From positions 44,766 to 108,765 of the IMG/VR virus record IMGVR_UViG_3300020152_000001: a stretch of 64,000 nucleotides of DNA; one strand, 5' to 3'. The notes beneath the pieces are model-generated. The model was given only the letters and a program-made list of their open reading frames with translations, did no database searches and had not been told where the DNA came from. The number at the start of each line of letters is the position of its first letter. Position 1 is the first letter of the stretch. A program made the translations under genes and the position numbers. This DNA is from a virus (lineage: Duplodnaviria > Heunggongvirae > Uroviricota > Caudoviricetes). Below are positions 4,050 to 55,516 of this stretch, in pieces.

Positions 4050-5156
4050 TCATTGGAGCCCCTGCTCGCTAATGCGGCGGAGAATCCACTCACGTGCCTT
4101 CAACGCGATAGGTCCTGCGACCTCTTTCCATGTAAGACCGCTGGCCTCGCGTTCGGCTTCGGTCTCTTTTTCGACATCACGGCCGATCCAGCCGAGAAAG
4201 GGCCCGATCTTTTGCACCGTGGCGACGCCGTCCGGCCAAACGGCCTGCAGGCCTTGCTCAAGGCGGGCCTCATGCACGTGGGCGGTCGTGAATGCCTTAG
4301 CGTTTTCGCTGGCCTCTGCCTTCATGCGGGCTGGTTTCGCGGCGCCCTTCTCGCCGTGGGCGGCGCCTTTGACTTTGAAGAGCAGCGACTGCGAATGCAG
4401 GCGCAGGTTGGACACGTCTTCGATGCGGAAGGCGCGGCCCGGCGTCATCGGGATTTCGACGGACTGCGGATAGAAGACTAGGCCTTCCCCGACGCCGTCG
4501 ATACCGAATACGGATTTGATGTAGGGGTCGCTCTGGTCGATCTTCGCGACTTCGTCGTTGATCTCGCGGACGATCTCTTCACCGCGTTCGCGATCGTTGA
4601 AGTCGAGGCGGATCAGACTGCCTTCGTGCCACGGGATCACTTTGACGCGCGGATGGATGCCGTTCTCGTTCGTCAGCCAGCGCTCGATGGACTCGGGATT
4701 GACAATATGTCCGTCTGCGGTCTCGATCGAGAACACGAAGAAGGTCTTCTCGGGTATCTGCGAGACCGAGACCTTCTTCTGGATTCCGGGGCCAGCCCAT
4801 TCGCCGTGAACGACGACGTACTCGTTCGCCAGCGGCCGGAGTGATGACCAATAGTCGTTCGTCTCTTCGACGAACTTCGCGAAGCCGCAGTTATCGTCCT
4901 CCGGTGTGATGTCGTCGGTGCGCTTCTGCGCCACGACTTTGCCGTAGCTGTAGACGCGGACGCCGCCATTGGTGCCGTGAAGTTTGACCTTCGCGCGATA
5001 CCGGACGATTGGCCGGTTCGGGAAATCGAACATGCCGGCGATCTGCTTCCACACGTTCACGAAGCCGAGGATCGACGGGAATTTGTGGTGATGATCGGAG
5101 ACCGGCGGCCCACCCTCTTCCGCTTCTGCGTAAGTTAGACTGACATCAGATGGCAT
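4050..5156 (-). CDS. RNA ligase, Rnl2-like (nucleotidyltransferase motif I KLHGTN)
   Basis: KVKLHGTNGG matches the T4 Rnl2 motif I (KIHGTN). Start moved to the ATG MPSDVSL at 5156. The ORF-track extension to 5327 overlaps the upstream gene and is low complexity. Confidence 0.75.
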   Translation of the reverse strand: MPSDVSLTYAEAEEGGPPVSDHHHKFPSILGFVNVWKQIAGMFDFPNRPIVRYRAKVKLHGTNGGVRVYSYGKVVAQKRTDDITPEDDNCGFAKFVEETNDYWSSLRPLANEYVVVHGEWAGPGIQKKVSVSQIPEKTFFVFSIETADGHIVNPESIERWLTNENGIHPRVKVIPWHEGSLIRLDFNDRERGEEIVREINDEVAKIDQSDPYIKSVFGIDGVGEGLVFYPQSVEIPMTPGRAFRIEDVSNLRLHSQSLLFKVKGAAHGEKGAAKPARMKAEASENAKAFTTAHVHEARLEQGLQAVWPDGVATVQKIGPFLGWIGRDVEKETEAEREASGLTWKEVAGPIALKAREWILRRISEQGLQ

Positions 5157-5841
5157 AGGTAAGCCCTGCTTTCGGCAGATCGCGTGCCTCGGCCACGCCC
5201 ATGTGCTGGCGCAGCTCCGTGATAAATTGGTCGGCGGTCTGATCGAGGATTTCGCCTTCGATCCAACCGCTCTGATCGAAATAGGCGTGCATGACTTCCG
5301 GCCGCATGCCGCGATGCATGACCTCAAGCCACGCGAGAGCGCGGCTCAGCATCCGCCGGTGCGTGTGCTCGCCGAGATAATCGCGCCAATGGACCTTGCG
5401 ACGCGGCTCCACGCCCTCGTCGACGTAGAAGCCCCACCACGCCTGCTTCTGCATGCGCCAGACGGCGGTGACGATGACGCCGTCATCATCGAGTTCGTAG
5501 CGCTTCTTGTCCCAGATGTTCTCTGGCACTACGCGGGCGCGGCCGAGGATGCGATGCGCGTACTCTGGCCGGCGATAGTGGAAGCGAAAGCGCTTCACGA
5601 TGTTCAGAGTCGTTTTGCCGGTCTTCGGGTCGTAGACTTCCTCGAAGTAGTCGGTGAACGGGAACGTGATGAAGCCCCACGGGTGATCGTGGGGATGTCG
5701 GTCTTCGTCCTTCCGCCACATGACATGCAGGCGGAAGCGCCCGATGATGCAACGGGTCATGTACGGCGACTGATCGCCCTTCCCCGTAATCGTGTCGAAG
5801 AACGGGAGCTTGTTCAGCAACTGTGACAAATGCTTCGCCAT
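5146..5841 (-). CDS. hypothetical protein with His-rich motif (RHPHDHPW)
   Basis: 231-aa ORF. The start codon lies inside the recurrent motif (CGTAAGTgagacTGACATGG). Possible metal-binding HxHDH motif. Function unknown. Confidence 0.5.
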   Translation of the reverse strand: MAKHLSQLLNKLPFFDTITGKGDQSPYMTRCIIGRFRLHVMWRKDEDRHPHDHPWGFITFPFTDYFEEVYDPKTGKTTLNIVKRFRFHYRRPEYAHRILGRARVVPENIWDKKRYELDDDGVIVTAVWRMQKQAWWGFYVDEGVEPRRKVHWRDYLGEHTHRRMLSRALAWLEVMHRGMRPEVMHAYFDQSGWIEGEILDQTADQFITELRQHMGVAEARDLPKAGLTYAI

Positions 5842-14689: not shown

Positions 14690-15434
14690 CGTAGACCATC
14701 CCCGCCGCCCGCATGCGCTGCACGTGGGCTTCGATTTTGTCGCGCTCTGCGCTGTCAGTGACGACCTCGATTACGCCGTCTTCGAGAAGCGGCGACGTTT
14801 CGAGAAACGGAGACTCGGCCAAGGCCTTGTCGACGGCCTGTTTGAGCGTCATCTTGGATTCGACGCCGCGAACATGGTGGCCGGTACCGTCGCCGTTTTT
14901 GTGCCAGCGACGCTCGCGATTGATGAGCATCTTGCCGGCGACGAGATCAATCAGGGACTCGTTGTAGAAGCTCGTGATGGCCATGAGATCGACGAATAGA
15001 AGCGCGACCTGATAGGCGACCTCGCGGCTGTCGAGGAAAGAATAGGCGTGGATGGCCTTAGCCAACGTGAGGTTGGCGTTGGCGACGAGCTGGTCGATGG
15101 CTGGGCCGTTGTGTTGTCTCTCTCCTCGGATCGCGGCGTCGATACGAGCGGGAACGCTGCGGTCCTCGACTGAAAGGCTGGCGAGCACAGAGACGATGTC
15201 GAAGTTCTCGATTTCGAATACGCGGATGGCGACGATGGCAACGTCAGCCGCCTCTTCGACGATCACGTTCTTGTTGCCGGTGACGATTTCCTTCTGAAGC
15301 TCCGCGAGTTCGGTGTTGGCACGGCGAAGTGTCACCAGCGTCGTGGATTCTCCGAACGACTCCGTAGCCCATGCGGTGATGCTGCGCTGGAGTTCACGCC
15401 AGAACAGGTTCTCAGAATGTGTTTCGTTCGTCAT
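14682..15434 (-). CDS. MazG-like NTP pyrophosphohydrolase domain protein
   Basis: LRRANTELAELQKEI...EEAADVAIVAIRVFE resembles the MazG EExxD/E helix pair. Start at ATG MTNETHS (15434). Confidence 0.5.
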   Translation of the reverse strand: MTNETHSENLFWRELQRSITAWATESFGESTTLVTLRRANTELAELQKEIVTGNKNVIVEEAADVAIVAIRVFEIENFDIVSVLASLSVEDRSVPARIDAAIRGERQHNGPAIDQLVANANLTLAKAIHAYSFLDSREVAYQVALLFVDLMAITSFYNESLIDLVAGKMLINRERRWHKNGDGTGHHVRGVESKMTLKQAVDKALAESPFLETSPLLEDGVIEVVTDSAERDKIEAHVQRMRAAGMVYVG

Positions 15435-15843
15435 CGTATCCGGCTTTGCTGTCGATTTCACGGGGAAGCATGATGTCCTCGGCGAAGATGCGCCGGACTC
15501 CCGCACGGCGGGCTCGACGGCACATGTCCAAGGTGCCGGCGCCACCGTCGAAGACGAGCAAGACATCGGGCTTGAGATCGGCGATGGCTTGGTTGCGGAT
15601 GCGGCCGGCTTTGAGGTCGAACTTGTCCCACTCGGCTTCGAGTTCGATCAGGGTCTCACCCCAGACGAACCCGTGTTTGCGGGCCCAGTTGTCGACCAGG
15701 AGATCGGTGCCACGGGCTCCGCCGTGAGCGAGCTTGGTGATGGGACCGCCGTAGCCACGACGCCGATCGTGAACCGCATTCATGACGCGGTTCACGAAGG
15801 TCTGATTTTTCAGGAGGCGAGAGCCCGTAACCGCGAGAAACAT
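15412..15843 (-). CDS. SLOG/DprA-like Rossmann protein
   Basis: VTGSR...LAHGGARGTDL...LLVFDGGAGT resembles the DprA/SLOG GxARGxD signature. Confidence 0.45.
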   Translation of the reverse strand: MFLAVTGSRLLKNQTFVNRVMNAVHDRRRGYGGPITKLAHGGARGTDLLVDNWARKHGFVWGETLIELEAEWDKFDLKAGRIRNQAIADLKPDVLLVFDGGAGTLDMCRRARRAGVRRIFAEDIMLPREIDSKAGYDDERNTF

Positions 15844-15887: not shown

Positions 15888-16325
15888 TTACTTCCGCTTG
15901 CGAAAAGTATCCAAGCGGATGACGGTACCGTCGTCGATCGGCGGCGGAGGTGGAGGCGGCAGCGCCGGGACCCTGACCTCCTGATAGATGGCGAAGCCCT
16001 TGGTCTTGTCGATAAACGTGGAGATCGCATCTAGCGGGACGTAGCAACGAAACTGCGCCCCGTTAAACCATAGGTCGACGCCAAAGCCGTTAGGCTCCAG
16101 TGTGAGGTTTCGGTATTGGTGTTGGAGGATCAGTACGACTTCGGGCCGTGCGTAGAGATGCCTGGGTAGGACGACGCCGGGGAATTCCGTCCGCACTGTC
16201 ACCTGAAAGGTGTGATCTTTGGTCAAGAGGTCACGACGCTGAGCCGCGTATCGCAGCAGCGTTGCTATCGAAAGACGACGCGCGTTATCGAGCGCGTTGT
16301 CATAGGGAATCATCTTCTCGGACAC
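15888..16325 (-). CDS. sspB: SspB-like ClpXP adaptor (stringent starvation protein B family)
   Basis: IPYD...HTFQVTVRTEFPGVVLP...VVLILQHQYRNLTLEPNGFGVDLWFNG...VPLDAISTFID aligns to alphaproteobacterial SspB. A basic C-terminal tail (IRLDTFRKRK) looks like a ClpX-binding motif. GTG start. Confidence 0.6.
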   Translation of the reverse strand: MSEKMIPYDNALDNARRLSIATLLRYAAQRRDLLTKDHTFQVTVRTEFPGVVLPRHLYARPEVVLILQHQYRNLTLEPNGFGVDLWFNGAQFRCYVPLDAISTFIDKTKGFAIYQEVRVPALPPPPPPPIDDGTVIRLDTFRKRK

Positions 16326-16696
16326 TACTTTTCGAAGCTCATGAATTGATCGGCGGGTATGATCACGTCGCAGATCGTTCGCTGGTTTTGAGGCTTGAAG
16401 ACGATGTCGATCACTGTCGCCGAACCGCCCAAGCCTCTCCTCACAAACTCACCCAACGCATGTTTCGTCGGACCTCTGCAAACCTCTGACCAGACTTCAG
16501 CGAAGGACTCATCGGTCGCATCCTTCGGTACGACCTTCTGCTTGCCGTCCTCAGAGGCGATGGCGAACCCCGTTGTCAGCATTGCAGCCGTCGCCACCAG
16601 CATATCCTCTCGTCTGATGCCGGCCGTTGTCCGCGCTTCAGCGGAAACACGACGATAGAGCACCAGCCCTTTTTGGAGGTGCGGCAGATAGCGCAT
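16325..16696 (-). CDS. hypothetical protein
   Basis: ATG start. ATGA coupling to the sspB-like gene. Confidence 0.45.
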   Translation of the reverse strand: MRYLPHLQKGLVLYRRVSAEARTTAGIRREDMLVATAAMLTTGFAIASEDGKQKVVPKDATDESFAEVWSEVCRGPTKHALGEFVRRGLGGSATVIDIVFKPQNQRTICDVIIPADQFMSFEK

Positions 16697-20859: not shown

Positions 20860-21335
20860 AGTTTTTCCTTCTCAAGCTGCACGACTCTAATAGAACCGCC
20901 GGTGCGGAGGTCGTGCTCCTTCGCGGCTTCGACGGCCAGTTCTGCGCCGGCGCCGGCGTGCATGGCACCCAACGCAAACTTCGCACCCGAGCCAAGCGCG
21001 TAATACGGCGCGTCGATGTATTCGGCTTCGAAGTCGGGGCCGGCGAAGAGGCCGATGCGGCTGGTTTGCGGATTGACGACGATCGCCTCTGCGAGGTCTT
21101 CGCCGTCGCCGAGTTCGCGGCGCGGATGCGAGTGCGGAGAGAAGTCGTCTCTGACCCAACGCACAAACGCCTCGATGTCGGAGATGCAACCGACGACGCC
21201 AACGAGATAGCGCTTCTCGTCGTTCTCTCCGGCGATCACGTCGAAGACTTTCTGCTTCTGGCCGATGACCGTCGTCTGCGTGGTGACGAGGCTGTCGCCG
21301 GCTAAGACGCCGTCTCTGTAGGCGATGGTACTCAA
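20856..21335 (-). CDS. HslV / proteasome-beta-like Ntn-hydrolase
   Basis: STIAYRDGVLAGDSLVTT aligns to the HslV N-terminus (TTIVSVRRNGHVVIAGDGQ). C-terminal ALGSGAKFALGA resembles GSGGxxA. TTG start overlaps the upstream TGA. Confidence 0.5.
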   Translation of the reverse strand: MSTIAYRDGVLAGDSLVTTQTTVIGQKQKVFDVIAGENDEKRYLVGVVGCISDIEAFVRWVRDDFSPHSHPRRELGDGEDLAEAIVVNPQTSRIGLFAGPDFEAEYIDAPYYALGSGAKFALGAMHAGAGAELAVEAAKEHDLRTGGSIRVVQLEKEKL

Positions 21336-21895
21336 GCGCTGACTCCAGCGTTGATGCCAAGCAAGTCGTCGAACACGTAGAAGACGTGCTCCGGCGGCAT
21401 GTTCTCGTCGACCTTGAGATACCAGTCGAAACCTTCGTCGATGTTCGGGCGCTCGAAATCGGCCCTCATCTTCTCGATGACGGCGTCGGGGATTTCTTTA
21501 CCAGGACGAGACTTCAGGCGGGTGGCGAGAACGTCGTCCTCCACCGACACCCAGATGCAGCCTACGTTGTAGAGCCGCCGGCTCACGCGGTTCGCGATCG
21601 AGGCCCGCTTCTTCGCCGTGAGGTTCGTCTGGTCCCAGATGATGACGCCATGGCCGAAGGCCATCGCCAACGCCATTTGCTCGTTGCAGTGCCGCCGGCC
21701 GGCGTCGGCGAATTGCGAGAAGGCTTCGGTGTAGGTCTTGCCGATCTTCGCGGCCTCGGCTTCGATGTAGTCGTCGGAGCTGATGACCGTGCAGGTGCTT
21801 CCCATCTCTCGAACGTAATTCGCCATGGCGTCGCGTAGCGTCGACTTGCCCGACGCCGGCAAGCCGACGAGAATGATGAGCGTGCGCTTCCTCAC
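21332..21895 (-). CDS. polynucleotide 5'-kinase-like P-loop kinase
   Basis: LIILVGLPASGKSTL...SSDDY closely parallels the T4 Pnk kinase N-terminus (GCPGSGKST...NRDDYR). GTG start overlaps the ligase stop (GTGA). Confidence 0.65.
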   Translation of the reverse strand: MRKRTLIILVGLPASGKSTLRDAMANYVREMGSTCTVISSDDYIEAEAAKIGKTYTEAFSQFADAGRRHCNEQMALAMAFGHGVIIWDQTNLTAKKRASIANRVSRRLYNVGCIWVSVEDDVLATRLKSRPGKEIPDAVIEKMRADFERPNIDEGFDWYLKVDENMPPEHVFYVFDDLLGINAGVSA

Positions 21896-23133
21896 GCGGC
21901 CTCCAGGAATTCTATGAACGACGGCGGGTTCAGGAGCAGCGACTTCGCGTGCTCCCAGTTCTTCGATGTCTGCGCGTGCTTACGCAGGTAATTTAGAATT
22001 GCGTCAGCGGTCGTGACTTTGCCGTCGAAGCACTTGAAAACCAGATGCCGGAGCTGCTGCCAGCGAGGATCAGAAGCAGCGTTCGCTTCCGATGCGATGG
22101 CGAATTCTTTGCGGCCGATCTCCTGAGCACGCAGAGTCTCAACATGGACCTTGGCGTTCAGGTGCTGAATCTCAGTGGCCAAACTCGCGATGTATTCTTC
22201 AACGCGAGCGCGATCTTCCGCAGCAAGAGCCGGCAGCAAGTCGTCGATCTTCTGGTCGAGGAAAAGGGCGGCGACGTTGTGCTCGCGGCCGATCAATTCC
22301 TTGGTCTTGTGCAGCTGCACATACCAGGAGGTCTTGAACTTCAGCATGTGGCCGTCGCGAAGCTGGAGTACGTAGCCCTCCACGCCCTCTGCTTCGTGCA
22401 AGGCCTCGCGGAAGAGTCGTTCGACGGGGACCGTTCCGACTACGGGAATGTCGTAGGAGCGCCCCCAGTTTTCGAGCTGGTCGCGGGGGATGTAGTGGCC
22501 GGTGTAATTCCACCGCGCCGCCAAGAGCACAAGCTGGTCCTCGGGATAGTCGAGGACGATGCGTTGGCGGCGGCTGCACCATTCGAAGATTGGCGTCACG
22601 CCAATGCGGGCGGCGTTTGTCGCAAATTCAACGTAGTTCGGACGCGACGCCACGAACTCTTCGACCGGCAGCGCGACATCAGTGACACCCATCTTCGTGC
22701 CCCAACGGATTCCGCCGGCCACGGGAATCGGCGTGATCATGGAGCCGTCGAGCTTGTCGGCGATCACATGGTCTTCTAACTGCACGAGTTCCAGGCCCGA
22801 GAGACCTTGGTCTTGCCTCTCGCCCTCGTTGAAGAACTTGTGAAAGCGTCGGGCGATGATCTCGCCCGTCGACGTGCGGAAGATGATCCCACGGCACTCT
22901 CGGAGAATCGCGGCGCCGTGATCGTAGTCATAGCGCCGGCCTTGGAATTCGGCATCGTTCGCGAGGACGACCTCGTTGAACACCGGCGGAAACGTCTCCG
23001 GCGTCTGGTAGACGTAATTGATGACGGTGTAGTCGCCTTCCTTCTCGACGACGACAAACTCGTCGCGCCCCTTAATGTGTGGGAGCACGTCGTTGATGCT
23101 TGTGATCGAGGGAAATGGGTAGCCGATCGTCAT
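21892..23133 (-). CDS. RNA ligase, Rnl1-like (motif I KLDGSM)
   Basis: VIADKLDGSM matches the T4 Rnl1 KEDGSL motif I. Start at ATG MTIGYPF (23133). The track extension to 23370 is Arg-rich low complexity. Confidence 0.75.
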   Translation of the reverse strand: MTIGYPFPSITSINDVLPHIKGRDEFVVVEKEGDYTVINYVYQTPETFPPVFNEVVLANDAEFQGRRYDYDHGAAILRECRGIIFRTSTGEIIARRFHKFFNEGERQDQGLSGLELVQLEDHVIADKLDGSMITPIPVAGGIRWGTKMGVTDVALPVEEFVASRPNYVEFATNAARIGVTPIFEWCSRRQRIVLDYPEDQLVLLAARWNYTGHYIPRDQLENWGRSYDIPVVGTVPVERLFREALHEAEGVEGYVLQLRDGHMLKFKTSWYVQLHKTKELIGREHNVAALFLDQKIDDLLPALAAEDRARVEEYIASLATEIQHLNAKVHVETLRAQEIGRKEFAIASEANAASDPRWQQLRHLVFKCFDGKVTTADAILNYLRKHAQTSKNWEHAKSLLLNPPSFIEFLEAA

Positions 23134-23336
23134 CAGTAAAACTGCTGGTAGAAGGAACAGATGGCGTTGTGATGCACGCCGTAGCGATTGATCACGGCGT
23201 CGAAGTCCGCCTTGACGAACGCCGGGGGTTCGCCATTGACGGCTCGAAGCTGGTTCTCGGCGACCATGCCGGAGACTTCCGCGTTCACGCACGCGGCCAT
23301 GCCCACGATATAGGCGGCGGACTGTTCTGGTGTCAT
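23133..23336 (-). CDS. hypothetical small protein (67 aa)
   Basis: Start at MTPEQSAAY. The upstream part of the track ORF is low complexity. Confidence 0.3.
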   Translation of the reverse strand: MTPEQSAAYIVGMAACVNAEVSGMVAENQLRAVNGEPPAFVKADFDAVINRYGVHHNAICSFYQQFY

Positions 23337-23432
23337 GCCAGCGGCACCAAGGCGCCGTTGCACGCGGCAACGATGACGACGATGACGGCTGCGAGAAGCC
23401 CGATGCCGGCGATGATGTTCGTCCGCATCAGA
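23337..23432 (-). CDS. putative 31-aa single-TM peptide
   Basis: MRTNIIAGIGLLAAVIVVIVAACNGALVPLA. Its start overlaps the stop of the phosphatase gene. Below the ORF-track size cutoff. Confidence 0.25.
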
Positions 23433-23949
23433 AGTCTCCGGGTTCGACTTGGCAGCACTTGAGCCCCCGGCGCCGCCACATGGCGACGACGCGGTCGCGA
23501 TCGTCGAAAACGATCTGCGGGTCCCAGCCATCGGCCAGAAGCTCGTCGAGCAGTTCTTCTTTAATGATGTCGTCGGCGCGGTAGTCTTTCGGCGCGCGAA
23601 TGTAGAGCGCATCGTAAGGCACGCCGGTTCGGGGCTCGCCGTCGAAGGCTTCCCATGTGGCCTCGTCGAGCCATTGCTTCGTCAGGTCGACAAACTCGCC
23701 GTCACGTCCCGAGCACAGGACCGTAGCCAGACCCACGGCGCGGGTGGCCAGGATCATGTTGAGGATGGGAGCGATCGGGGCGTCGGAGACACAGCCCTTG
23801 TGGAAGGCGAGGTAGTTCTTCGGCTTGACGGCGATGAACGGGCGACGATGGGAGAGATCGGCGATGGTGCCATCGATGTCGAAGATCGCGCACTTCCGGC
23901 GTGGGAGTGCGTTCACGTCCGACTGTGTAATGGTGCCAAAATCTACCAA
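23428..23949 (-). CDS. HAD-family phosphatase (Pnk 3'-phosphatase-like)
   Basis: AIFDIDGTIADLSHR is the HAD motif I DxDGT (compare T4 Pnk VIFDVDGTLA). Start moved to TTG at 23949 behind gaggggag, because the track start is the TTG inside a TTGACA box. Confidence 0.6.
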   Translation of the reverse strand: MVDFGTITQSDVNALPRRKCAIFDIDGTIADLSHRRPFIAVKPKNYLAFHKGCVSDAPIAPILNMILATRAVGLATVLCSGRDGEFVDLTKQWLDEATWEAFDGEPRTGVPYDALYIRAPKDYRADDIIKEELLDELLADGWDPQIVFDDRDRVVAMWRRRGLKCCQVEPGDF

Positions 23950-24014
23950 TGTGCTCCCCTCGTTAGTGTTCCTGTCGATCGTAAGCCATACTGACGCCCT
24001 TGTCAATCAAAATC

Positions 24015-27088: not shown

Positions 27089-29290
27089 ATGAAGTCGGCA
27101 GTTCTGGAAAAGCGCGAAGTCGAGGTCGGTGGCGCCTCTGAGATCGGTGAATTCACGATCGCGGCCAACGCCAAGGCCTTCCGCATCCTCATCGACGGCC
27201 TGTATTCCGACAAGCCGCGCGCCATCGTCCGTGAACTCTGGTCGAACGCCTTCGACTCCCACATCGAGCACGGCTGTGCCGATCGCCCGTTCGAATGCCA
27301 CCTCCCGACGCAATGGGAGCCCTTCTTCAGCGTCCGGGACTTCGGAGTCTCGCTGTCGCACGAAGGCGTGATGAAGCTCTACACCCGCGTTTTCGAGTCC
27401 ACGAAGGAAGACACCAACAAAGCCGTGGGCAAGTTCGGCCTCGGCTCGAAGACGTTCTTCGCCTACACCGACTCCGCTAACGTCATCGCTCGCAAGGACG
27501 GCCGCAAGCGCACCTACAACGCCTTCATCGCCGAGAACGGCAAACCCATGATCGTGCTCTTCGCCGACGAAGAGTGTGACGAAGAACAGGGTCTGGAGGT
27601 CTCGTTCTCGGTCAAAGTCCAGGACATCGAGAATTTCAAGCGCGCCGCCCGTATGACGCTGCCGGGCTTCGATGTTCACCCCATCATGACTGGCGCCGAA
27701 GTCGTCGCCGAGAGCCTTCAGACCAACATTGAAGGCACCGGCTGGCGACTGGTCCGCCCGAACAACCTCGTCCGCACGGCCGTAGCCCGCCAGGGCTGCG
27801 TGATTTATCCGATCGATCGCGGCGCCATGGCAGACGAAGCCCTCAGCTACACGCAGCTGGAGCTTCTGAACTCGCCGCTGTTCATCGACTTCCCGATCGG
27901 CGATGTCGACATCACCCCGTCGCGCGAAACCCTCTCCTACGACGACGCGACGAAGAAGAATATCGCCAAGCGTCTGGTCGAGATCGAGAACGAAATCGTC
28001 GGCCGTGTCGAAGTCGCTATCTCCGGTGCGAAGACGCTTTGGGAAGCGCGCCGCGAGCTGAATTCTGTCCTCGGCGAATACTCGCTGCCGTCGACGATTC
28101 GCGACTTCATCAAAGGCAACGCCAAGTGGCGCGGCGAAACCGTCGAACGCTACATCAAGGTCAAGTCGCGACCGTTCGCCGCCCTCGCGCACATTCGCTC
28201 GTATGAACTCCGTCGCCGCAAGTCGGAAATTCGTTTCGACGCGAGAAGCGACATCAGCCTCACCGTCGACGACGGCTTGGTCATCGTTTTCCAGGACGTG
28301 AACAAGCGCGTTACCTACCAAAACGCACGCTTGCGCGAGTTCATCGACACCCTGCCCTACAACAGCGATCGTTCGGTTCTGTGGGTCAAGGTCGACTATA
28401 CGAAGACCGACTACAAGCGCCTGCTCGTCGATCTCGGCAAGCCGCCGGCTAATGTCATCTACAAACTCGAAGACATGCCGGAACCTTATATCAACCGCGT
28501 CGCCGGCCCGAAGATCAAGATCAAACGCCTCGACTATTCGTCGTGGACGGAAGCCAACCATCAGCCCGAAGACGGCGGCATCTATGTCGACTTGAAGAAG
28601 AACGACATCATCCGCAAGGTCAAACGGCCGATCGAGCAAGTGAAGTACGAAGACGGCCAACCCGTCACCGACCCCGCCACCGGCGACTGGGTGTATGAGA
28701 CCGTCGTCAAAGAAGTCGAGACGCATGTCGGCGTCTACGAACTCAAGAACTTCATCGAACTCCTAGTGGCCCAGGGCGTGATGAAGGACGGCGACCAAGT
28801 CCTTGGCATCACCGCGTCCTACAAAAACATACCGACCAAGCACGCCGGCTGGAAAAACTTCTTCGATCTCCTGGACGAAAGCGTCGACACCAACATCGAC
28901 CTCAACCTCTTGGCGTCGGTGAAGGCCTATGATCCCGTAAAGCGTACACGCGCTTGGAACATTGCCGAAGAAATGCTGGACGCCGGCCTGCAAGTCACCG
29001 ATGGCCCGGCAAAGAAGCTCATGGCCGAGATCGAGTTCTATCGCGAACTCGTTGCTTCGGATGACGTGAAAAAGGCGGAGGCCGCGTTCAAGGTTCTCCA
29101 AGCCGTCCGTCCGCAAGACGCGGAGCTGCCGGACGCTCCGGAACCTTGCGAAGCCGAAATCTCAGCCTTCGAAGACGCATACCCCATGGCCATGGCCTTG
29201 GTGGAGGCCTCGTATGGTTCGATCTCGTCGGCGCAGCTGTCGATGATCGTCGATTACGTAATTCTCGTTGACAAACGTCAGCAAGTGTGA
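27089..29290 (+). CDS. rIIA: rIIA-like GHKL (Hsp90-type) ATPase
   Basis: LYSDKPRAIVRELWSNAFDS and VGKFGLGSKTFFAYTD match the Hsp90/GHKL N and G1/G2 boxes. 733 aa, followed by a partner gene, as in T4 rIIA-rIIB. Confidence 0.55.
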   Translation: MKSAVLEKREVEVGGASEIGEFTIAANAKAFRILIDGLYSDKPRAIVRELWSNAFDSHIEHGCADRPFECHLPTQWEPFFSVRDFGVSLSHEGVMKLYTRVFESTKEDTNKAVGKFGLGSKTFFAYTDSANVIARKDGRKRTYNAFIAENGKPMIVLFADEECDEEQGLEVSFSVKVQDIENFKRAARMTLPGFDVHPIMTGAEVVAESLQTNIEGTGWRLVRPNNLVRTAVARQGCVIYPIDRGAMADEALSYTQLELLNSPLFIDFPIGDVDITPSRETLSYDDATKKNIAKRLVEIENEIVGRVEVAISGAKTLWEARRELNSVLGEYSLPSTIRDFIKGNAKWRGETVERYIKVKSRPFAALAHIRSYELRRRKSEIRFDARSDISLTVDDGLVIVFQDVNKRVTYQNARLREFIDTLPYNSDRSVLWVKVDYTKTDYKRLLVDLGKPPANVIYKLEDMPEPYINRVAGPKIKIKRLDYSSWTEANHQPEDGGIYVDLKKNDIIRKVKRPIEQVKYEDGQPVTDPATGDWVYETVVKEVETHVGVYELKNFIELLVAQGVMKDGDQVLGITASYKNIPTKHAGWKNFFDLLDESVDTNIDLNLLASVKAYDPVKRTRAWNIAEEMLDAGLQVTDGPAKKLMAEIEFYRELVASDDVKKAEAAFKVLQAVRPQDAELPDAPEPCEAEISAFEDAYPMAMALVEASYGSISSAQLSMIVDYVILVDKRQQV

Positions 29291-29347: not shown

Positions 29348-30679
29348 ATGGCAAGTCTGAATTACACGATCACCCCGAGGTCGATCAACGTCCTCGTCGA
29401 CGGGCGTCCTCGCGCCGTCGATGCGTCGTCCCCCAACTTCGAGCCGCTGAAGGCCGAGCTGAAGAAGGGCGTCGAAGCCAGCCTCGATGTCATCCGTGAA
29501 CTCGCCGATCTGCCGCGCTTCCTTGCGCTCTCCACCGCCGGCCGCGTTCAAGTCGGCGGCGAAGAAATCCGCTTCGATGGCAAACCCATCGCCGGCATCT
29601 ACGTCGACCAAACGTTGGCGCTGCTCCGCGAAGGCTTCGACATCGCGGCGCTGGCCCACTATCTCGACAAGCGCGAGCAAAACCCCAGCGTCAAAGCTCG
29701 CGAAGAACTCGACCTCTTCCTGCAGTCGGGCAACTTCGTGCTGACGCCGGACGGCGACATCCTCGCCTTCAAAAAGGTCAACGACGACTACACGTCGTAC
29801 CATCGCGACCCCAGCGGTGAGCCCGTCTACAACCGCATCGGCGACAAGCCGTCGATGCCGCGTGAAACCGTGGACCCGAACCGCAGCGCCACGTGCTCGC
29901 GTGGTCTTCACTTCTGCTCGTTCTCCTACCTGCCGCACTATTACGGCGGTCAGGGCCGCGTCGTCATCGTGAAGATCAACCCCGCCGACGTGGTGTCGAT
30001 CCCGCATGACTACAACAACTCGAAGGGCCGTGCATGGACCTACGAGGTCGTCGGCGAAGTGCCGGAAGACGAGGCCTCGAAGTTCTTCGACGGCCGTCCG
30101 CTGGTCAGCGACTACAATGGCTCCGGCGCCGCGTTCGATGACGACGATGACAGCGAATTCTTCGGCGAAGACGGCTCCGACAACAGCGACGACACCTCCC
30201 CCGAGGCCATCGCCGCGATCATCGGTGAATTCACGGAAGAGCGCTATGGCGACTTCTACCCGGAAAACATCGACACCATTCTCGACGAAGACCGCGACGA
30301 GGATGAACGCCGCGAGGCCCTGAAGGACCTCTTCGGCAGCGACTGGGGCGCGACGCCGCAAGGCTACGAGTTCTGGGACGCCATCGACGATGAGCTGCTC
30401 TATACGACGCTCTCGGACAAGTCGATCGCCGTGCTCGAAGGCCTGCGTGACGCCGCCGCTGCGGCCATCGCCAACGCCGGCGCCGATGGCGGCGACGACA
30501 ATGACGGCGGCTCCGAAACCGTCCTCGTCTTCAAGACCAAAGACGGCCGTCAGTTCACCGCCGACGAGATCAAGAAGATCGTCGAAGAGCACGGCTATCG
30601 CGGTGGCTTCCGGAACTCCGGCATCCCCGAGTCTACTCTGCGCGGCTGGATGTCCCAAATCCGCGAGGCCGCAAACTAA
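29348..30679 (+). CDS. rIIB: rIIB-like protein (443 aa)
   Basis: Position and size relative to the GHKL gene. Acidic low-complexity middle region. Assignment by synteny only. Confidence 0.35.
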   Translation: MASLNYTITPRSINVLVDGRPRAVDASSPNFEPLKAELKKGVEASLDVIRELADLPRFLALSTAGRVQVGGEEIRFDGKPIAGIYVDQTLALLREGFDIAALAHYLDKREQNPSVKAREELDLFLQSGNFVLTPDGDILAFKKVNDDYTSYHRDPSGEPVYNRIGDKPSMPRETVDPNRSATCSRGLHFCSFSYLPHYYGGQGRVVIVKINPADVVSIPHDYNNSKGRAWTYEVVGEVPEDEASKFFDGRPLVSDYNGSGAAFDDDDDSEFFGEDGSDNSDDTSPEAIAAIIGEFTEERYGDFYPENIDTILDEDRDEDERREALKDLFGSDWGATPQGYEFWDAIDDELLYTTLSDKSIAVLEGLRDAAAAAIANAGADGGDDNDGGSETVLVFKTKDGRQFTADEIKKIVEEHGYRGGFRNSGIPESTLRGWMSQIREAAN

Positions 30680-30772: not shown

Positions 30773-31282
30773 ATGCCCGTCAACAAGCTCAAGCTCGTGC
30801 CCGACTCCGACCCCGTGCTTCACCAGCCGGCGCCGGAAGTCGCGATTACGGGCTCGCAGCTTCGCGGTGGTAAGAGCTATCCAGACTTCGGCGCTGAAGT
30901 CATCGCCGAACTCAGCGACATGTACGACCTCATGAAGATGCAGCGTGCGATCGGAATCGCCGCGCCTCAGGTCGGACTGGCCAAGCGCATGTGCATCGTC
31001 GCCGTGGGTCACGACGTTCATTTCATGATCAACCCCAAGATCACGTTCTCGTCGGGGATCAAGCAGACGGCGCTAGAAGGCTGCCTCTCCTACCCCGGCC
31101 AACAAGCCAAGGTGTCGCGTTCACTCTCGCTCGTCGTCGAGTTCTACGATCGCTCTGGCATCTTCCACAAATTGCGAGCGCAGGGTTTGCTTGCCCGCTG
31201 CATCGCACACGAGGTCGACCACCTCGACGGCATCGTCATGCACGATCGCGTCAGCGTGGCTGACAAGCGTCAGGCAAGCTAA
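30773..31282 (+). CDS. def: peptide deformylase
   Basis: All three PDF motifs are present: GIAAPQVG, EGCLS, HEVDHLDG. Confidence 0.9.
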   Translation: MPVNKLKLVPDSDPVLHQPAPEVAITGSQLRGGKSYPDFGAEVIAELSDMYDLMKMQRAIGIAAPQVGLAKRMCIVAVGHDVHFMINPKITFSSGIKQTALEGCLSYPGQQAKVSRSLSLVVEFYDRSGIFHKLRAQGLLARCIAHEVDHLDGIVMHDRVSVADKRQAS

Positions 31283-43774: not shown

Positions 43775-44832
43775 CCGCTCTCGACTTCAAACAGATTTTC
43801 AACGACTACATCGCCGACACCCAGAAGAAGTGGGCGCACGACCGCTCGACTACGTTGGGTGCGTCGGAAGTCTTCGGCTGCATCCGCAAGGCGTGGTTCT
43901 CGAAGCGCGGCGCCGAGTTCGGCTACGAGAAAGACCCCGACTACGAAGAGTCGTGGGGCGCTACGCGTCGCGGCGACCTCATCGAAAACTTCCACGTGGT
44001 CCCGGCGATGAAATATCTCCCGCCGCCGGCCGAGATCAAATACGCGGGCGAGGATCAAGAGACCATTGTTCTCGATCGCAACTCCGCGACTCCGGACGGC
44101 CTGATCACCGGGCTCACAAAGGATGCGCTGAAGAACTACGGTGTCGACAACATCAAGTCGAACTGCATCGTCCTCGAAATCAAGTCGATCGATCCCCGCG
44201 TCAATCTCAAGGCCGAGAAAGACATTCACCACGGGCAAACCCAGGTGCAGATGGGCATCATTCGTGAGACCACGAAATTCCGTCCGCACTACGCCGTTGT
44301 TCTCTACATCGACGCCAGCTTCCTGGACGACATCAAGGTCTTCGTCGTCGAGTTCGACGAGAAGAAGTGGGAGGTCGCGAAGAAGCGCGCCGGCAATGTT
44401 TGGTCGATCGACGATCCAAAAAAGCTGACCCCCGAAGGCAAGTTCGACGGCAGCTGCGAATACTGCCCGTACACGCACGCTTGCGCTTTCGTCACCAACG
44501 GCATGATCCCAGAGACGTTGGCGAAGAAGGGCAAGTTCGTCGCCGTCGACGACAAGCTACTGGAAACGCTGCTCGCGTCCTATGGCGCTATCACTGAGAA
44601 GAAGAAGGCCGTCGAGGCCGACTACGAACTCATTCGGCAGCAGATCAAGGAACGCCTTGTCGAGGTCGGCGACAGCCGCGTGCAAACCGATCGCGGCAAG
44701 GTCTCGTGGTCGAAGCAAAAGGGCCGCGAAACCCTGGATACCGAGGCCATGGAAGCCGATGGCATCGACCTCGGCAGATACAAAAAGGAAGGCGCTGCCT
44801 TCGACAAGCTGACGATTACGCTCGACGATTGA
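43771..44832 (+). CDS. PD-(D/E)xK exonuclease, Cas4/YqaJ-like with C-terminal Cys cluster
   Basis: GASEVFGCIRKAWF, VLEIKS (E-x-K), CEYCPYTHAC cysteine cluster. Confidence 0.6.
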   Translation: MAALDFKQIFNDYIADTQKKWAHDRSTTLGASEVFGCIRKAWFSKRGAEFGYEKDPDYEESWGATRRGDLIENFHVVPAMKYLPPPAEIKYAGEDQETIVLDRNSATPDGLITGLTKDALKNYGVDNIKSNCIVLEIKSIDPRVNLKAEKDIHHGQTQVQMGIIRETTKFRPHYAVVLYIDASFLDDIKVFVVEFDEKKWEVAKKRAGNVWSIDDPKKLTPEGKFDGSCEYCPYTHACAFVTNGMIPETLAKKGKFVAVDDKLLETLLASYGAITEKKKAVEADYELIRQQIKERLVEVGDSRVQTDRGKVSWSKQKGRETLDTEAMEADGIDLGRYKKEGAAFDKLTITLDD

Positions 44833-47066: not shown

Positions 47067-47404
47067 CCGCGACATACGAAGACTATCGCCGAGAACTCGC
47101 AGAGGCCGTCGATCTCACAGAGACCGTGATCTCGGCGACAACCAACCTTCTCACCTTCCTGGAGAGCCTGCGTGTCTCCGTGCCCGAAGTCTGGCAGGAT
47201 GACGACACTCTCGATCTCCGCTGGGAGGGCGACAAGCCCTACACCGCATGGACGCTGCACGTGTCCGAGAAGCGGACGATCGCCGTCTACACCAATCTCC
47301 GAGGCGAAGGCTACGGCGTCGCCGTCGAAGACTATGAGCACCTGAAGAGGTTGCTCGCCGACACCCGCATCGCCTTCGTCATCGAGAAAGCCAATGTCTG
47401 CTAG
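47063..47404 (+). CDS. hypothetical protein
   Basis: ATGA coupling with the helicase. Confidence 0.4.
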   Translation: MTATYEDYRRELAEAVDLTETVISATTNLLTFLESLRVSVPEVWQDDDTLDLRWEGDKPYTAWTLHVSEKRTIAVYTNLRGEGYGVAVEDYEHLKRLLADTRIAFVIEKANVC

Positions 47405-47993
47405 GCCCGCCAACGGTCCCGAATTCTGGGACGTGATTCTCCGCGACATCAGACGCGAGAACCCCAGCATCCAGCCCATCATTGCCGGTGGCGCCGTCCG
47501 CGACTTCATCCTCGGCGGCGAAGCCAAGGACATTGATGTGTGGTTCTACAAGTCGACGCGCGGTGGCCCGACGACCGCGACCATGCACAAGGCCAAGCGT
47601 TGGACTCGTGTCGTACCCGATGACGAAGACGAGAACGAATACGCCAGCAACAGCCGGCTGAAGATGCTGCACAACTACGCCTTCTACGGCTGGGACGTGC
47701 AGCTCATCGGCGTCGACGTGTTCCCCTGGGGCTGGGAGTCACTCGTCAACGACTTCAACATCGGCCTTTCGAAGATGGCCTATGACGGCGCCGTCCATGC
47801 TCACGCCGACGCCCTCACGGACATCGCCAACAAAACCGTGAGCATCGTCAAACCCAACGCAGGCGAACGCCTGAAGCGGTGTGTCGGCAAGGCCACGGCG
47901 CTCGCAGCGAAGTACGGCTTCGACAAGAGCAACATCATCCCAGCGGCCATGAGCGTAGTCGACGATTTCGAACTCGAAGAGGTCCCGTTCTAA
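47394..47993 (+). CDS. CCA-adding-enzyme-like nucleotidyltransferase head domain (Pol-beta superfamily)
   Basis: IIAGGAVRDFILGGEAKDIDV matches the class II tRNA nucleotidyltransferase GGxVRD...DxD catalytic motif. Only 199 aa, so no body or tail domain. Confidence 0.55.
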   Translation: MSARPANGPEFWDVILRDIRRENPSIQPIIAGGAVRDFILGGEAKDIDVWFYKSTRGGPTTATMHKAKRWTRVVPDDEDENEYASNSRLKMLHNYAFYGWDVQLIGVDVFPWGWESLVNDFNIGLSKMAYDGAVHAHADALTDIANKTVSIVKPNAGERLKRCVGKATALAAKYGFDKSNIIPAAMSVVDDFELEEVPF

Positions 47994-48586
47994 TGGCGGC
48001 ATGGATCGAGGGCTACGTCTCTCGGTTCGACACCGAAGACTGCTACGGAGACATCAACTTAGAAACCTGCTTCGACGTGTTTCTTCGGCGCTACCGCACC
48101 GTCTTTGAGTGCGGCGTCCCCATGCTCATCGAGCACGACGACAAGAGGCTCTGCGGGCGCTGGTACAGGTTCTGGAAGGACAAGGACGGTCTCATTGGCC
48201 GTGGTGAAATCTTCCGTCATCGGAAACATGGCCGCAACGCCGTCGCCGGGATTCTAGACGGCAGTCGTCGCGATCTCAGCATCGGTTTCTGGCACTCGCG
48301 GAGCCGACACGATTCCAGCCGTTGGTATCGCGTCGATTCCGACGACAAGAAGACCATCAAGTTTCTGCGGAAGGGCGGCCGGCGGCTGATCCCTTCCCAA
48401 ACCGAGGCCCAGGCCTTCGCCTTCAGGCCGTTTGTTAAGACCCGCATCCTCATCGGCGAGGTCTCGCTCGTTAACCGAGCCGCCTGCGTTGGGTCGCGGG
48501 TGCAACAAATCGTTAACCACGGGGTCAGTTTGCCTGACTTCGGCGCAATTCCGCTTGACATTCAGTCAGCGTCAGTATCTAACTAG
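47993..48586 (+). CDS. HK97-family prohead protease-like protein (peptidase S78/U35-like)
   Basis: IEGYVSRFDTEDCYGD...PMLIEHDD...LSIGF follows the S78 pattern (GYASVF..D..GD...HD...LSiGF). Located in the replication module, away from any head genes. Confidence 0.4.
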   Translation: MAAWIEGYVSRFDTEDCYGDINLETCFDVFLRRYRTVFECGVPMLIEHDDKRLCGRWYRFWKDKDGLIGRGEIFRHRKHGRNAVAGILDGSRRDLSIGFWHSRSRHDSSRWYRVDSDDKKTIKFLRKGGRRLIPSQTEAQAFAFRPFVKTRILIGEVSLVNRAACVGSRVQQIVNHGVSLPDFGAIPLDIQSASVSN

Positions 48587-52689: not shown

Positions 52690-53014
52690 CGGCGCAGTTG
52701 CTTGCCTAATGACCGAAACGTAAGGCGCAGACGAAAAAAGTTCCATACTGGGGCGCCGCAAGCGTAAAGCCAAGGTTCCCAAGAGCACTGCTAACGGCCG
52801 ACATGGTTCCCATACTTCAACACCACCGTAGACCTAAAGGATAGGCACATTGAATACTTGGATGGAGTGAGTTTAAGAAAGGTTGCTCTCACTGTCTTCT
52901 GGGGTTACTGTGGTCAATGTAAGCTACGCTTCTAACATGATTTGTTGCGCCACGCGCGATTTTGCTGTAGTGACTTACTCGCGTGGTCGGAACTGACCGC
53001 AGAGGTAAGAGTTG

Positions 53015-53824
53015 ATGGCACGCAAGGCAAAAGGTGCTAAGCGCACAGTGAAAAGGAGACGCATCATGAAGACTGCTCCGGCGGCGCCGCCGCCACAGAC
53101 TCCGCCCCGGGCCGCTGCCGGTCCTCGTCTGGTTTCGGAGACCGGGGTTCTCGCACGTGAAAAGTCGACGGTGGGCTCTCGCCTACGCGAAGCCCGGGAG
53201 CGCGCAGAGATGACGCAAGCCGACGTAGCTGGAAAGCTGCCCTCCCCGAAGGGCGACGGCCGGACGATGTCTCGGGCGAACATCGCTCAGTACGAAAGCG
53301 ACGCCGTCGAGCCCCCGCTTCACACCGTCGAAGAGATCGCGAAGATTCTGAAGACGCCGGCCTCGTATCTGGCATTCGGCGTCGGCGGGCTTGGTCCCCT
53401 CGGCACCGGCCAGGACGCGATCGATGCCTTGCTCGCTGAGGTCCCCGAATTCACGTTCGGCGACGCTCCCGACGCCCGCGAACCCGTCACCGAATGGAAG
53501 CTGCCGAAGGACTGGCTGCGGGCTCAGCTCCGCGTCAGCAAGTTCGACGACCTCTTCATCTACCAGTGCCAATCGCAGAACATGGCGCCGCAATACGAGT
53601 TCGGCGACAAGCTCGTGGTCGACGGCAGCGACCGTAAGGGCAGCGGTGTCTATCTGCACTGGGACGGCACGGCGCCGGCGATCAACCGCATCACCGTGAT
53701 CCCCAAGGCCTCGGGCCCGATCGCGCGTGTGGCGTCGACGGACAATGTCACCGACCAATACGAGGTGCCGGTCTCTGACCTGCATATTCTCGGCCGCGTT
53801 CGCGGCGTCTGGAAAGCCTCGTAA
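53015..53824 (+). CDS. CI-like repressor (N-terminal XRE HTH plus C-terminal S24 LexA-like peptidase domain)
   Basis: HTH SRLREARERAEMTQADVAGKL...ANIAQYES. S24-like QSQNMAPQYEFGDKLVVD and ILGRVRGVWK. ATG at 53015 behind agaggtaagag. Confidence 0.65.
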   Translation: MARKAKGAKRTVKRRRIMKTAPAAPPPQTPPRAAAGPRLVSETGVLAREKSTVGSRLREARERAEMTQADVAGKLPSPKGDGRTMSRANIAQYESDAVEPPLHTVEEIAKILKTPASYLAFGVGGLGPLGTGQDAIDALLAEVPEFTFGDAPDAREPVTEWKLPKDWLRAQLRVSKFDDLFIYQCQSQNMAPQYEFGDKLVVDGSDRKGSGVYLHWDGTAPAINRITVIPKASGPIARVASTDNVTDQYEVPVSDLHILGRVRGVWKAS

Positions 53825-54208: not shown

Positions 54209-54285
54209 TGGCGCACCCGACAGGATTCGAACCTGTGACCTCTGCCTTCGGAGGGCAGCGCTCTATCCAGCTGAGCTATGGGTGC
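54209..54285 (-). tRNA. tRNA-Arg (anticodon CCG)
   Basis: Reverse complement GCACCCATAGCTCAGCTGGATAGAGCGCTGCCCTCCGAAGGCAGAGGTCACAGGTTCGAATCCTGTCGGGTGCGCCA folds as a cloverleaf. Anticodon loop CTCCGAA. T-loop GGTTCGAATCC. 3' CCA is encoded. Confidence 0.85.
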
Positions 54286-54355: not shown

Positions 54356-55516
54356 ATGGCATCCGTATATCCGGTGACGCTTAAGAACAAGGCCGGTGTC
54401 GAACGCACCGTCTATCGCGTCCAATACACAAACGCCAATGGCAAGCTGAAGCAGAAGCAGTTTCGCAACAAGCGTTTGGCTAACTCCTGGATCAGTGCCG
54501 GCGGCCACGTCGCCGTAGAGGCGGCACCGATCGAAGCCACGGGCTCCAAGTTCTCTGCCATCGCTAAAGCCTGGGTCTCCGCCTGCGAACGCGGCCTCCA
54601 CGGCGAAATGCCGCTCGAAGTCTCCGTCACCGAGGGCTATCGCTCCTATCTTAAGAACTGGATCAATCCCGAGATCGGAGACCTCGACATCGCCGATGTC
54701 GATCGCAACCGCTTCAGGGAATTCCGAGACTGGGTCTTAGAACAAGGCCTCGCGCGGGCGACCGCGAAGAAGATCGTTGGCATCGCCCGCAGCGTCATCA
54801 AGTACGCACTGGACACCGACCTCATCCCCGCCGACCCAACGACGGGAATCACCGTCAAGCTCGCTTCTGGGAGGCATAGGGACCGCTCGACAAAGCGGCT
54901 GCCGGTACATTCCAAGGCAGACATGAAGAAGCTGCTGGCGGTGTCGGCTGAACTCGCGAAGGCCGAGGACAAGCGGACCTCGATCGCCTGGGCTCGCTAT
55001 AGACCCATGCTTCTGCTCTTCGTCTACGCGGGCTTGCGGTCGTCGGAACTCCGGGGACTGCCGAGAGACATGTTCGATCACGCCGAGGGCTCCGTGGAAG
55101 TGAAGCAGCGCGCCGATCGCTACGGCGTCATTGGCCCGCCGAAGTCGACGGCCGGTTATCGCATCATCCGTCTCCCGCGTTGGGTCGCTGACGAAGTCGC
55201 GGAATACCTGAAGACGCACGACCACGAACTCGTCTTCCCTGCCCGACGCAGCGGCGAGCCGATGTCACGCGAGAACATCGAGCGGAGAATGTGGACGCCG
55301 TTGCAAAAGAAGGTCGGAGTGTCTGTGCTGGGTCTCCACTCGATCCGTCACTTCTTCGCGTCGAGGTTGATTGAGCTTGGCGCAAACTCTAAGCAGCTCC
55401 AAGAGCGCATGGGTCACCACAGCGAGAGCTTCACCAAAGACGTGTACGGGCATCTCTTCAAAGACGAAGAAAACATCCGTGCCGACCAGCAACTCGCCGA
55501 ACGGCTGACGCTCTAA
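54356..55516 (+). CDS. int: tyrosine integrase
   Basis: 386 aa. C-terminal HSIRHFFASRLIELG...GHHSESFTKDVYGHL gives the R-H-R-Y catalytic signature. Adjacent to the tRNA. Confidence 0.85.
   Translation: MASVYPVTLKNKAGVERTVYRVQYTNANGKLKQKQFRNKRLANSWISAGGHVAVEAAPIEATGSKFSAIAKAWVSACERGLHGEMPLEVSVTEGYRSYLKNWINPEIGDLDIADVDRNRFREFRDWVLEQGLARATAKKIVGIARSVIKYALDTDLIPADPTTGITVKLASGRHRDRSTKRLPVHSKADMKKLLAVSAELAKAEDKRTSIAWARYRPMLLLFVYAGLRSSELRGLPRDMFDHAEGSVEVKQRADRYGVIGPPKSTAGYRIIRLPRWVADEVAEYLKTHDHELVFPARRSGEPMSRENIERRMWTPLQKKVGVSVLGLHSIRHFFASRLIELGANSKQLQERMGHHSESFTKDVYGHLFKDEENIRADQQLAERLTL

Follow-up and report, generated by a model that had tools for sequence, protein, structure and literature searches.

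Adaptors of the ClpXP protease decide which proteins a bacterium destroys, and a phage with an adaptor of its own could redirect this host machinery. Alphaproteobacteria cannot do without ClpXP, which drives their cell cycle. The adaptor SspB of E. coli has a dimeric cargo domain and a flexible tail that binds the N-domain of ClpX (PMC9963277). Phage-encoded members of the family are on record. Gp18 of Pseudomonas phage pf16 was described in 2017 as an SspB analogue and, from docking models, was proposed to interfere competitively with RseA delivery (PMC5587285). Gp039 of Erwinia phage RAY was annotated as an SspB-like ClpXP adaptor with cytoplasmic localisation (bioRxiv 10.1101/2023.02.24.529968). 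PHROG includes a phage family named ‘stringent starvation protein SspB-like’ (phrog_8945), and a tblastn search with E. coli SspB returned 78 phage records, mostly from Pseudomonas, Erwinia, Ralstonia, and Xanthomonas phages; the list includes a few that look like bacterial DNA. The gamma/beta-type phage SspBs that we translated end in a docking peptide (LRVVK in pf16, LTVVK in RAY, and LSVVK in gp94 of Ralstonia phage FLC4-3B). Because these copies, too, keep L-x-V-V-K, retention of the ClpX-docking peptide recurs in independent lineages of phage SspB. Our literature search found no report of a functional test of any phage SspB.

The earlier note on the present DNA implied that a phage-borne SspB would be a novelty. 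With pf16 gp18, RAY gp039, phrog_8945, and the 78 records already annotated, that part is weakened. The new element is an alpha-type phage SspB, of which no verified copy was found elsewhere in PHROG or INPHARED. We therefore regard the result as solid but incremental: a real and divergent alpha-type addition to an annotated SspB-like class that has apparently seen no functional tests. The notion of an SspB encoded by a phage has precedents, and no unusual mechanism is shown here.

The window is a stretch of 64,000 nucleotides from a Caudoviricetes genome in IMG/VR (IMGVR_UViG_3300020152_000001, positions 44,766 to 108,765). Its source contig (ENA ERZ27252484 k141_12613, 132,745 bp) has ends that overlap by 141 bp, and coordinate arithmetic places the window across those ends. 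Since the contig closes on itself through this overlap, the genome is about 132.6 kb and was assembled as a circle. The features discussed below are listed in Table 1.

Table 1. Features of the 64,000-nucleotide window; positions are counted from its first letter.
Feature	Position	Strand	Remarks
SspB-like gene, complete	15888..16325	minus	145 codons plus stop, GTG start; from ORF list and sequence
Substrate-binding domain, residues ~5-116	15978..16313	minus	N-terminal helix (8-29), then beta-sandwich; AlphaFold2 and Foldseek
Proline-rich short tether, residues 117-134	15924..15977	minus	Seven-proline run P123-P129 at nt 15939-15959
C-terminal ClpX-binding (XB)-type peptide VIRLDTFRKRK, residues 135-145	15891..15923	minus	Alignment, family consensus
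Upstream 123-aa protein	16325..16696	minus	Stop overlaps SspB start; no Pfam or PHROG match
YAcAr/SLOG-domain protein, downstream of SspB	15412..15843	minus	Pfam PF10686 (E = 5.7e-9); phrog_289 ‘GTP-binding domain’
DUF5906 primase-type replication protein, 1066 aa	16730..19930	minus	PHROG DNA primase and Pfam DUF5906; synteny anchor
Second RNA ligase (PF09414)	4050-5327	minus	
AAA_33 kinase	21332-21895	minus	
T4 Rnl1-like RNA ligase	21892-23370	minus	
HAD-PNKP phosphatase	~23428-24006	minus	
Second short Phage_integrase-family protein, 209 aa	24015-24644	minus	First gene of the conserved early block in the three phage lineages
rIIA	27089-29290	plus	
rIIB	29348-30679	plus	
Peptide deformylase	30773-31282	plus	
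SPFH/Band 7 protein, 472 aa	31304-32722	plus	
ORF overlapping the S78-like ORF	47394-47993		
S78-like ORF	47879-48586	plus	E = 1.3e-9
HTH protein near the tRNA-Arg(CCG)	53012-53824	plus	
tRNA-Arg(CCG), complete	54209-54285	minus	70 bp from tyrosine integrase; contig starts and ends exactly at the tRNA
Tyrosine integrase	54356-55516	plus	
Tail protein, 2153 aa	56902-63363	minus	Phage-tail_3, Rcc01698_C (RcGTA-like host-specificity), and ALK/LTK-type glycine-rich domains

The claim that the gene is phage-borne is borne out by its surroundings, as the window also encodes rIIA and rIIB, a Pol I-type polymerase, Dda-like and UvrD helicases, the DUF5906 primase, an RNR, RNA ligases, a tail protein, and an integrase. 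The polymerase is 47-49% identical to those of phiCbK-like Caulobacter phages and of a Microcystis phage. The SspB-like gene sits in the replication and early module, between the phage primase on one side and phage helicase and methylase genes on the other. A homologue of the 123-aa protein upstream (28% identity, E = 2e-13) follows the primase in a related phage, and one or two small ORFs lie between this homologue and SspB in the relatives. On the other side, the YAcAr/SLOG protein adjoins SspB in all three phage lineages (the same adjacency is seen in loci L003-L008), and this conserved pairing might be meaningful. The tRNA-Arg(CCG) gene probably marks an attP, in which case the phage would be temperate; further signs of this are the integrase adjoining the tRNA, HTH proteins, and a P4 cII-like gene. 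Across the ~80 kb of the 132.6-kb genome made up by the window and its flanks (L009 and L010), we saw neither a tmRNA nor a Clp gene.

Other parts of the window are of separate interest. Directly after rIIA and rIIB come the peptide deformylase and the SPFH/Band 7 protein. Modulators of the FtsH protease include SPFH proteins of the HflK/C kind, and since the deformylase and SPFH/Band 7 genes occur together with SspB, the phage has several genes related to protein maturation and turnover. The two RNA ligases, the AAA_33 kinase, and the HAD-PNKP phosphatase form an RNA-repair set that is probably a counter-measure against host anticodon nucleases. One ORF matches the caudovirus prohead serine protease S78 weakly, though above threshold; it overlaps another ORF inside a block of replication and nucleotide-metabolism genes, an odd place for a head-maturation protease.

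The SspB-like ORF is uninterrupted, and its GTG start overlaps the stop of the upstream gene by one base (TAGTG). The metagenome gene caller had placed the start at an ATG four codons downstream, giving a protein of 141 aa. We prefer the GTG start (145 aa) because the two phage homologues begin with MEKLIPY and MEKLPPY, which align with MSEKMIPY of the window protein. From its N-terminus, the protein consists of a folded domain (to about residue 116), the short linker EVRVPALPPPPPPPIDDGT, and the terminal peptide VIRLDTFRKRK. All parts of the architecture are present in the prediction: a cargo domain, a tether, and a peptide of the ClpX-binding type.

The SspB identity proposed in the earlier note was confirmed by a Pfam match above the cut-off and by sequence matches to alpha-type structures. 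The SspB model (PF04386) matched residues 18-113 with E = 5.3e-16 and 59.5 bits against a gathering score of 27. The PDB sequence matches cover residues 3-131 and include Agrobacterium AGR_C_3712 (2nys, 2e-10) and Caulobacter SspB (2qas/2qaz, ~1e-9). With the window protein as query, an exhaustive HMMER search over 1.84 billion representatives returned 1281 matches at E <= 1e-3. The NCBIfam equivalogs for the gamma/beta-type ClpXP specificity-enhancing factor, NF008764 and NF008769, scored 15.2 and 13.4 bits, below their cut-offs of 191 and 135. Neither the window protein nor its phage relative P0002 matched any PHROG at E <= 0.01, phrog_8945 included; E. coli SspB matched phrog_8945 at 5.8e-27. 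The Pfam, PDB, and HMMER matches put the likeness of the predicted protein to SspB well beyond chance. One of the cellular proteins annotated as SspB, a 603-aa protein from Sphingobium sp. MK2 (WP_349635839.1; our P0004 and P0155), was matched by HMMER in three separate stretches, a hint of repeated SspB-like domains. It lacks a C-terminal XB motif, and its architecture is unusual for the family.

Structure prediction agreed with the family assignment. The AlphaFold2 model, which was built from an alignment of 24 alpha-type sequences and hence from SspB homologues, has a mean pLDDT of 91.2 and a pTM of 0.77, with seven strands after the N-terminal helix. All 19 Foldseek matches to the PDB at E <= 1e-3 are SspB structures. 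The best fits are to the alpha-type structures 2qas, 2qaz, and 2nys (TM 0.84-0.89 normalised to the target, rmsd 1.7-2.9 A), and the fit to the SspB type of E. coli and H. influenzae is poorer (TM 0.61-0.72). The check on the fold that had been suggested beforehand therefore returned SspB, with the alpha type fitting best.

The tail resembles that of cellular alpha-type SspB. In the HMMER alignment, GTVIRLDTFRKR of the window protein is paired with GSVVSLDAFRKK of the Agrobacterium protein, and the Agrobacterium tail VVSLDAFRKK is aligned with VIRLDTFRKR (residues 135-144). The family consensus is VVxLDxFRKK, a loose form of which was C-terminal in 108 of 152 alpha-type sequences; none of the three phage copies departs from it at the V, L, D, F, R, and K positions. 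We take this C-terminal consensus to be the ClpX-binding motif of the alpha type. Chowdhury and colleagues reportedly showed in 2010 that about ten residues make up the determinant by which Caulobacter SspB binds ClpX. VIRLDTFRKR looks like such an alpha-type C-terminal peptide, that is, about ten residues following a disordered linker. What had been noticed as a short basic tail reminiscent of a ClpX-binding motif held up and can be put more specifically, as a fit to the alpha-type VVxLDxFRKK.

Two further metagenomic phage lineages carry the gene. One copy (P0002, on IMG/VR contig UViG_3300009982_000018 and found on contigs of up to 84.9 kb) is 44% identical to the window protein, and the other (P0151) is 62% identical to P0002. 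All three lineages share the gene order integrase-like, HAD-PNKP, RNA ligase, AAA_33 kinase, primase, ~125-aa ORF, SspB, YAcAr/SLOG, P4 cII-like, and UvrD. Between the window and locus L002, SspB (44%), the primase (46% over its full length), and the neighbouring YAcAr protein (44%) have diverged about equally. Pairwise dN/dS among the phage SspB copies is 0.22-0.27, with synonymous sites near saturation. The GC and GC3 of the gene resemble those of its neighbours, including the primase. The three phage proteins group together (83 of 100 bootstraps) in a neighbour-joining tree built from 143 alpha-type sequences. Their clade is on a long branch, with a median distance to the others of 1.4-1.8 versus 0.89 among the others. 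The highest identity of the window protein to any non-phage sequence is ~41%.

Searches for closer relatives were negative. A scan of 185,579 species-representative genomes with an alignment of the three phage proteins found no relative, and a word-index protein search with the window protein matched only the protein itself. No match was obtained by tblastn with the window protein and P0002 against 50,697 INPHARED phage records, or by a single-sequence scan of IMG/VR with the window protein.

Because of the synteny, the primase-like divergence, the dN/dS of about 0.25, and the separate long-branched clade, we regard the gene as one that has long been in phages under selection, not as a recent acquisition from a host. 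The gene appears to be vertically inherited and under purifying selection. The earlier note had raised recent capture from a host as a question for phylogeny. The tree answered with a long phage-specific branch, and the three-lineage synteny and the divergence in step with the primase likewise speak against it. Synteny, dN/dS, composition, and phylogeny led us to reject a pseudogene, an assembly artefact, and a recent capture alike, and a flanking host gene was ruled out by the lack of any relative in the species-representative genomes.

One might still suppose that the gene has no real phage function and is a host gene from a mis-assembled or prophage-flanking region, or else a decaying passenger. 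Some other records favour this view. The sole canonical alpha-type sspB in INPHARED (MT836065.1, ‘UNVERIFIED Bacteriophage sp.’, 13 kb; our L011) has the look of bacterial chromosomal DNA, with alaS, thyA, and folA alongside; we rejected it as a phage copy. The only three IMG/VR contigs with a canonical alpha-type SspB are short (10.8-11.7 kb), two of the three have the gene at the contig edge, and they were set aside as probable host DNA. The window gene, however, is intact, lies between phage genes in a self-closing contig, is syntenic in three lineages and under purifying selection, and has no counterpart in the species-representative genomes. We consider this explanation very improbable.

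From the alpha type of the phage SspB, the GTA-, BR0599-, and phiJL001-type tail domains, the affinities of the polymerase, and a GC content of ~60%, we infer an alphaproteobacterial host, at which the GTA-like domains of the 2153-aa tail protein also hint. The analysis did not establish the Caulobacter-like host of the earlier note. The tRNA gene is of little help. The exact 74-nt tRNA-Arg(CCG) has no match in the 185,579 species genomes, and blastn against plasmids gave top matches of 94.8% (Devosia and Agrobacterium) but also 93.5% in enterobacteria, which is not discriminating.

We read the window protein as a functional, phage-adapted SspB of the alpha type that acts as a ClpX-tethered adaptor and alters degradation by the host ClpXP, with a probability of roughly 0.6. 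This reading is based on family, predicted fold, docking motif, phage location, vertical inheritance, and purifying selection. From these we infer ClpX binding, dimerisation, delivery, and the timing of expression. The protein would probably be made together with the early and replication genes. Its cargo-binding domain would be joined by a short, stiff polyproline tether to the C-terminal peptide, which would dock on the N-terminal domain of ClpX. Most likely, it would tether itself to the host ClpXP in this way and deliver its bound cargo for degradation. As a result, the set of proteins degraded by the host protease would shift, either in the course of infection or at the lysis-lysogeny decision.

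Which cargo such an adaptor would carry depends on a domain that has changed a good deal. We scored the three phage copies at the 41 columns of the domain where conservation among the other 140 alpha-type sequences reaches 75% or more. The phage copies retain 54-63% of the consensus at these columns, compared with a median of 88% and a minimum of 68% for the other sequences, which makes them the three most deviant of the 143. All three copies keep 18 of the 41 columns, including Y8, H38, F40, G50, V51, Q68-H69-Q70, L85, F87, P97, F104, D106, and F111. Twelve columns are changed in all three, and these may lie in the groove, the interface, or the core. Six of these 12 changes are non-conservative (V19S/T, G31R/L/M, G36K/Q, H39T/A, P107K/Y/H, and F115Q/K/N). 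At three positions (R16, V44, and C94) the new residue is identical in all three copies, a pattern more suggestive of a shifted constraint than of decay. High conservation in E. coli SspB is reported for the dimer interface and the ssrA groove alone (PMC9963277), so one or both of these surfaces have probably changed in the phage clade.

With the cargo domain this diverged, plain delivery of ssrA tags should not be assumed. Tags of the ssrA type may persist as cargo, and a changed or additional cargo is about as likely because the domain has diverged further than that of any other alpha-type sequence sampled. The kept QHQ, H38, and D106 favour continued peptide binding, and the clade-specific replacements favour an altered specificity.

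In a rival reading, that of a retargeted degrader, the docking peptide was kept and the cargo groove remodelled. The cargo brought to ClpXP would then be either one specific protein of the host, be it a defence factor, a regulator, or an anti-sigma-type target, or the phage’s own repressor or regulator, and ssrA tags would no longer be handled. The clade-consistent replacements fall at positions otherwise 79-96% conserved (R16, V44, and C94 gained; H39, P107, and F115 lost), and they are seen under purifying selection. The phage looks temperate, and E. coli SspB is known to deliver a cargo without an ssrA tag, a fragment of RseA (cited in PMC5587285). Yet QHQ, H38, D106, and most core residues are kept, and tag binding may thus survive; the replacements may lie in the dimer interface or in a repacked core (F44V with L94C) and not in the groove; and our analysis turned up no candidate cargo. 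We consider this rival possible but rather doubtful.

The tether bears on whether cargo would be delivered at all. Linker length was defined from the alignment and ranked over 104 sequences, and the three phage copies have tethers of 19, 21, and 21 aa, ranks 2, 4, and 5, against a median of 45 (the window protein has 19 aa and rank 2). They also have the longest proline runs of the set, with 7 prolines in the window protein and 5 and 4 in the others. A polyproline tether of 19-21 aa, at the extreme short end of the family, may prevent hand-off. Our literature search found no source for the minimum tether length at which SspB functions.

If hand-off were blocked, the protein could serve as a decoy or competitive inhibitor. 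The XB peptides of the dimer would fill the ClpX N-domains and shut out host adaptors and N-domain-dependent substrates without productive delivery, either shielding phage proteins from ClpXP or disturbing the regulated proteolysis of the host. This would fit the XB-type motif being the best conserved feature in all the phage SspBs examined, as well as the unusually short, rigid tether, and the authors of the pf16 study proposed competitive inhibition for the gamma-type copy from their docking models (PMC5587285). Such a decoy needs nothing beyond a tail and a dimerising scaffold, though, and H38, Q68-H69-Q70, and D106 have stayed fixed across 44-62% divergence; moreover, substrate-free E. coli SspB binds ClpX weakly (PMC9963277). 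We find the decoy improbable, and return to a delivering adaptor as the preferred reading.

A more pointed history can also be sketched. An alphaproteobacterial SspB would have been captured long ago; its docking peptide was then kept, its tether shortened and stiffened, and its cargo domain remodelled into a targeted-degradation device against a host defence or regulatory protein or the phage’s own lysogeny regulator. We put this forward tentatively and would not be surprised to see it fail. If it is true, the retention of docking peptides in gamma/beta-type phage SspBs as well would point to a general and unstudied phage strategy of rewiring ClpXP specificity. In this 145-aa protein, the docking peptide is clearly retained and the cargo domain clearly diverged, and the question of same or new cargo is directly testable. 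The phage clade could also yield a natural design for short-tether degraders.

Compared with known systems, the window protein is closest to SspB of Caulobacter crescentus (2QAS/2QAZ) and AGR_C_3712 of Agrobacterium (2NYS), with which it shares the Pfam family, the predicted fold, the invariant residues, and the arrangement of domain, linker, and VVxLDxFRKK. It differs from them in being phage-encoded and only 28-30% identical, with a shorter polyproline tether and fewer consensus residues. In comparison with cellular alpha-type SspBs, it also has a two-residue deletion before the E-[MV]-T/V-L strand. With E. coli SspB (1OU9, 1OX9, and 8ET3) it has the fold class (Foldseek E = 1e-6 to 4e-5) and the tethering logic in common, but the TM of 0.61-0.72 is lower, the identity is 18-28%, and the XB motif is a different one.

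The gamma/beta-type phage SspBs (phrog_8945, pf16 gp18, RAY gp039, and FLC4-3B gp94) resemble the window protein in being small (128-150 aa) products of large-phage genes that keep the docking peptide of their type, and pf16 gp18 also has a short Pro-rich linker. They belong to another branch of the family, however, and end in a peptide such as L-R-V-V-K, whereas the window protein ends in an alpha-type XB peptide of about ten residues. This peptide, together with the absence of any PHROG or INPHARED match, points to an independent acquisition from an alphaproteobacterial lineage.
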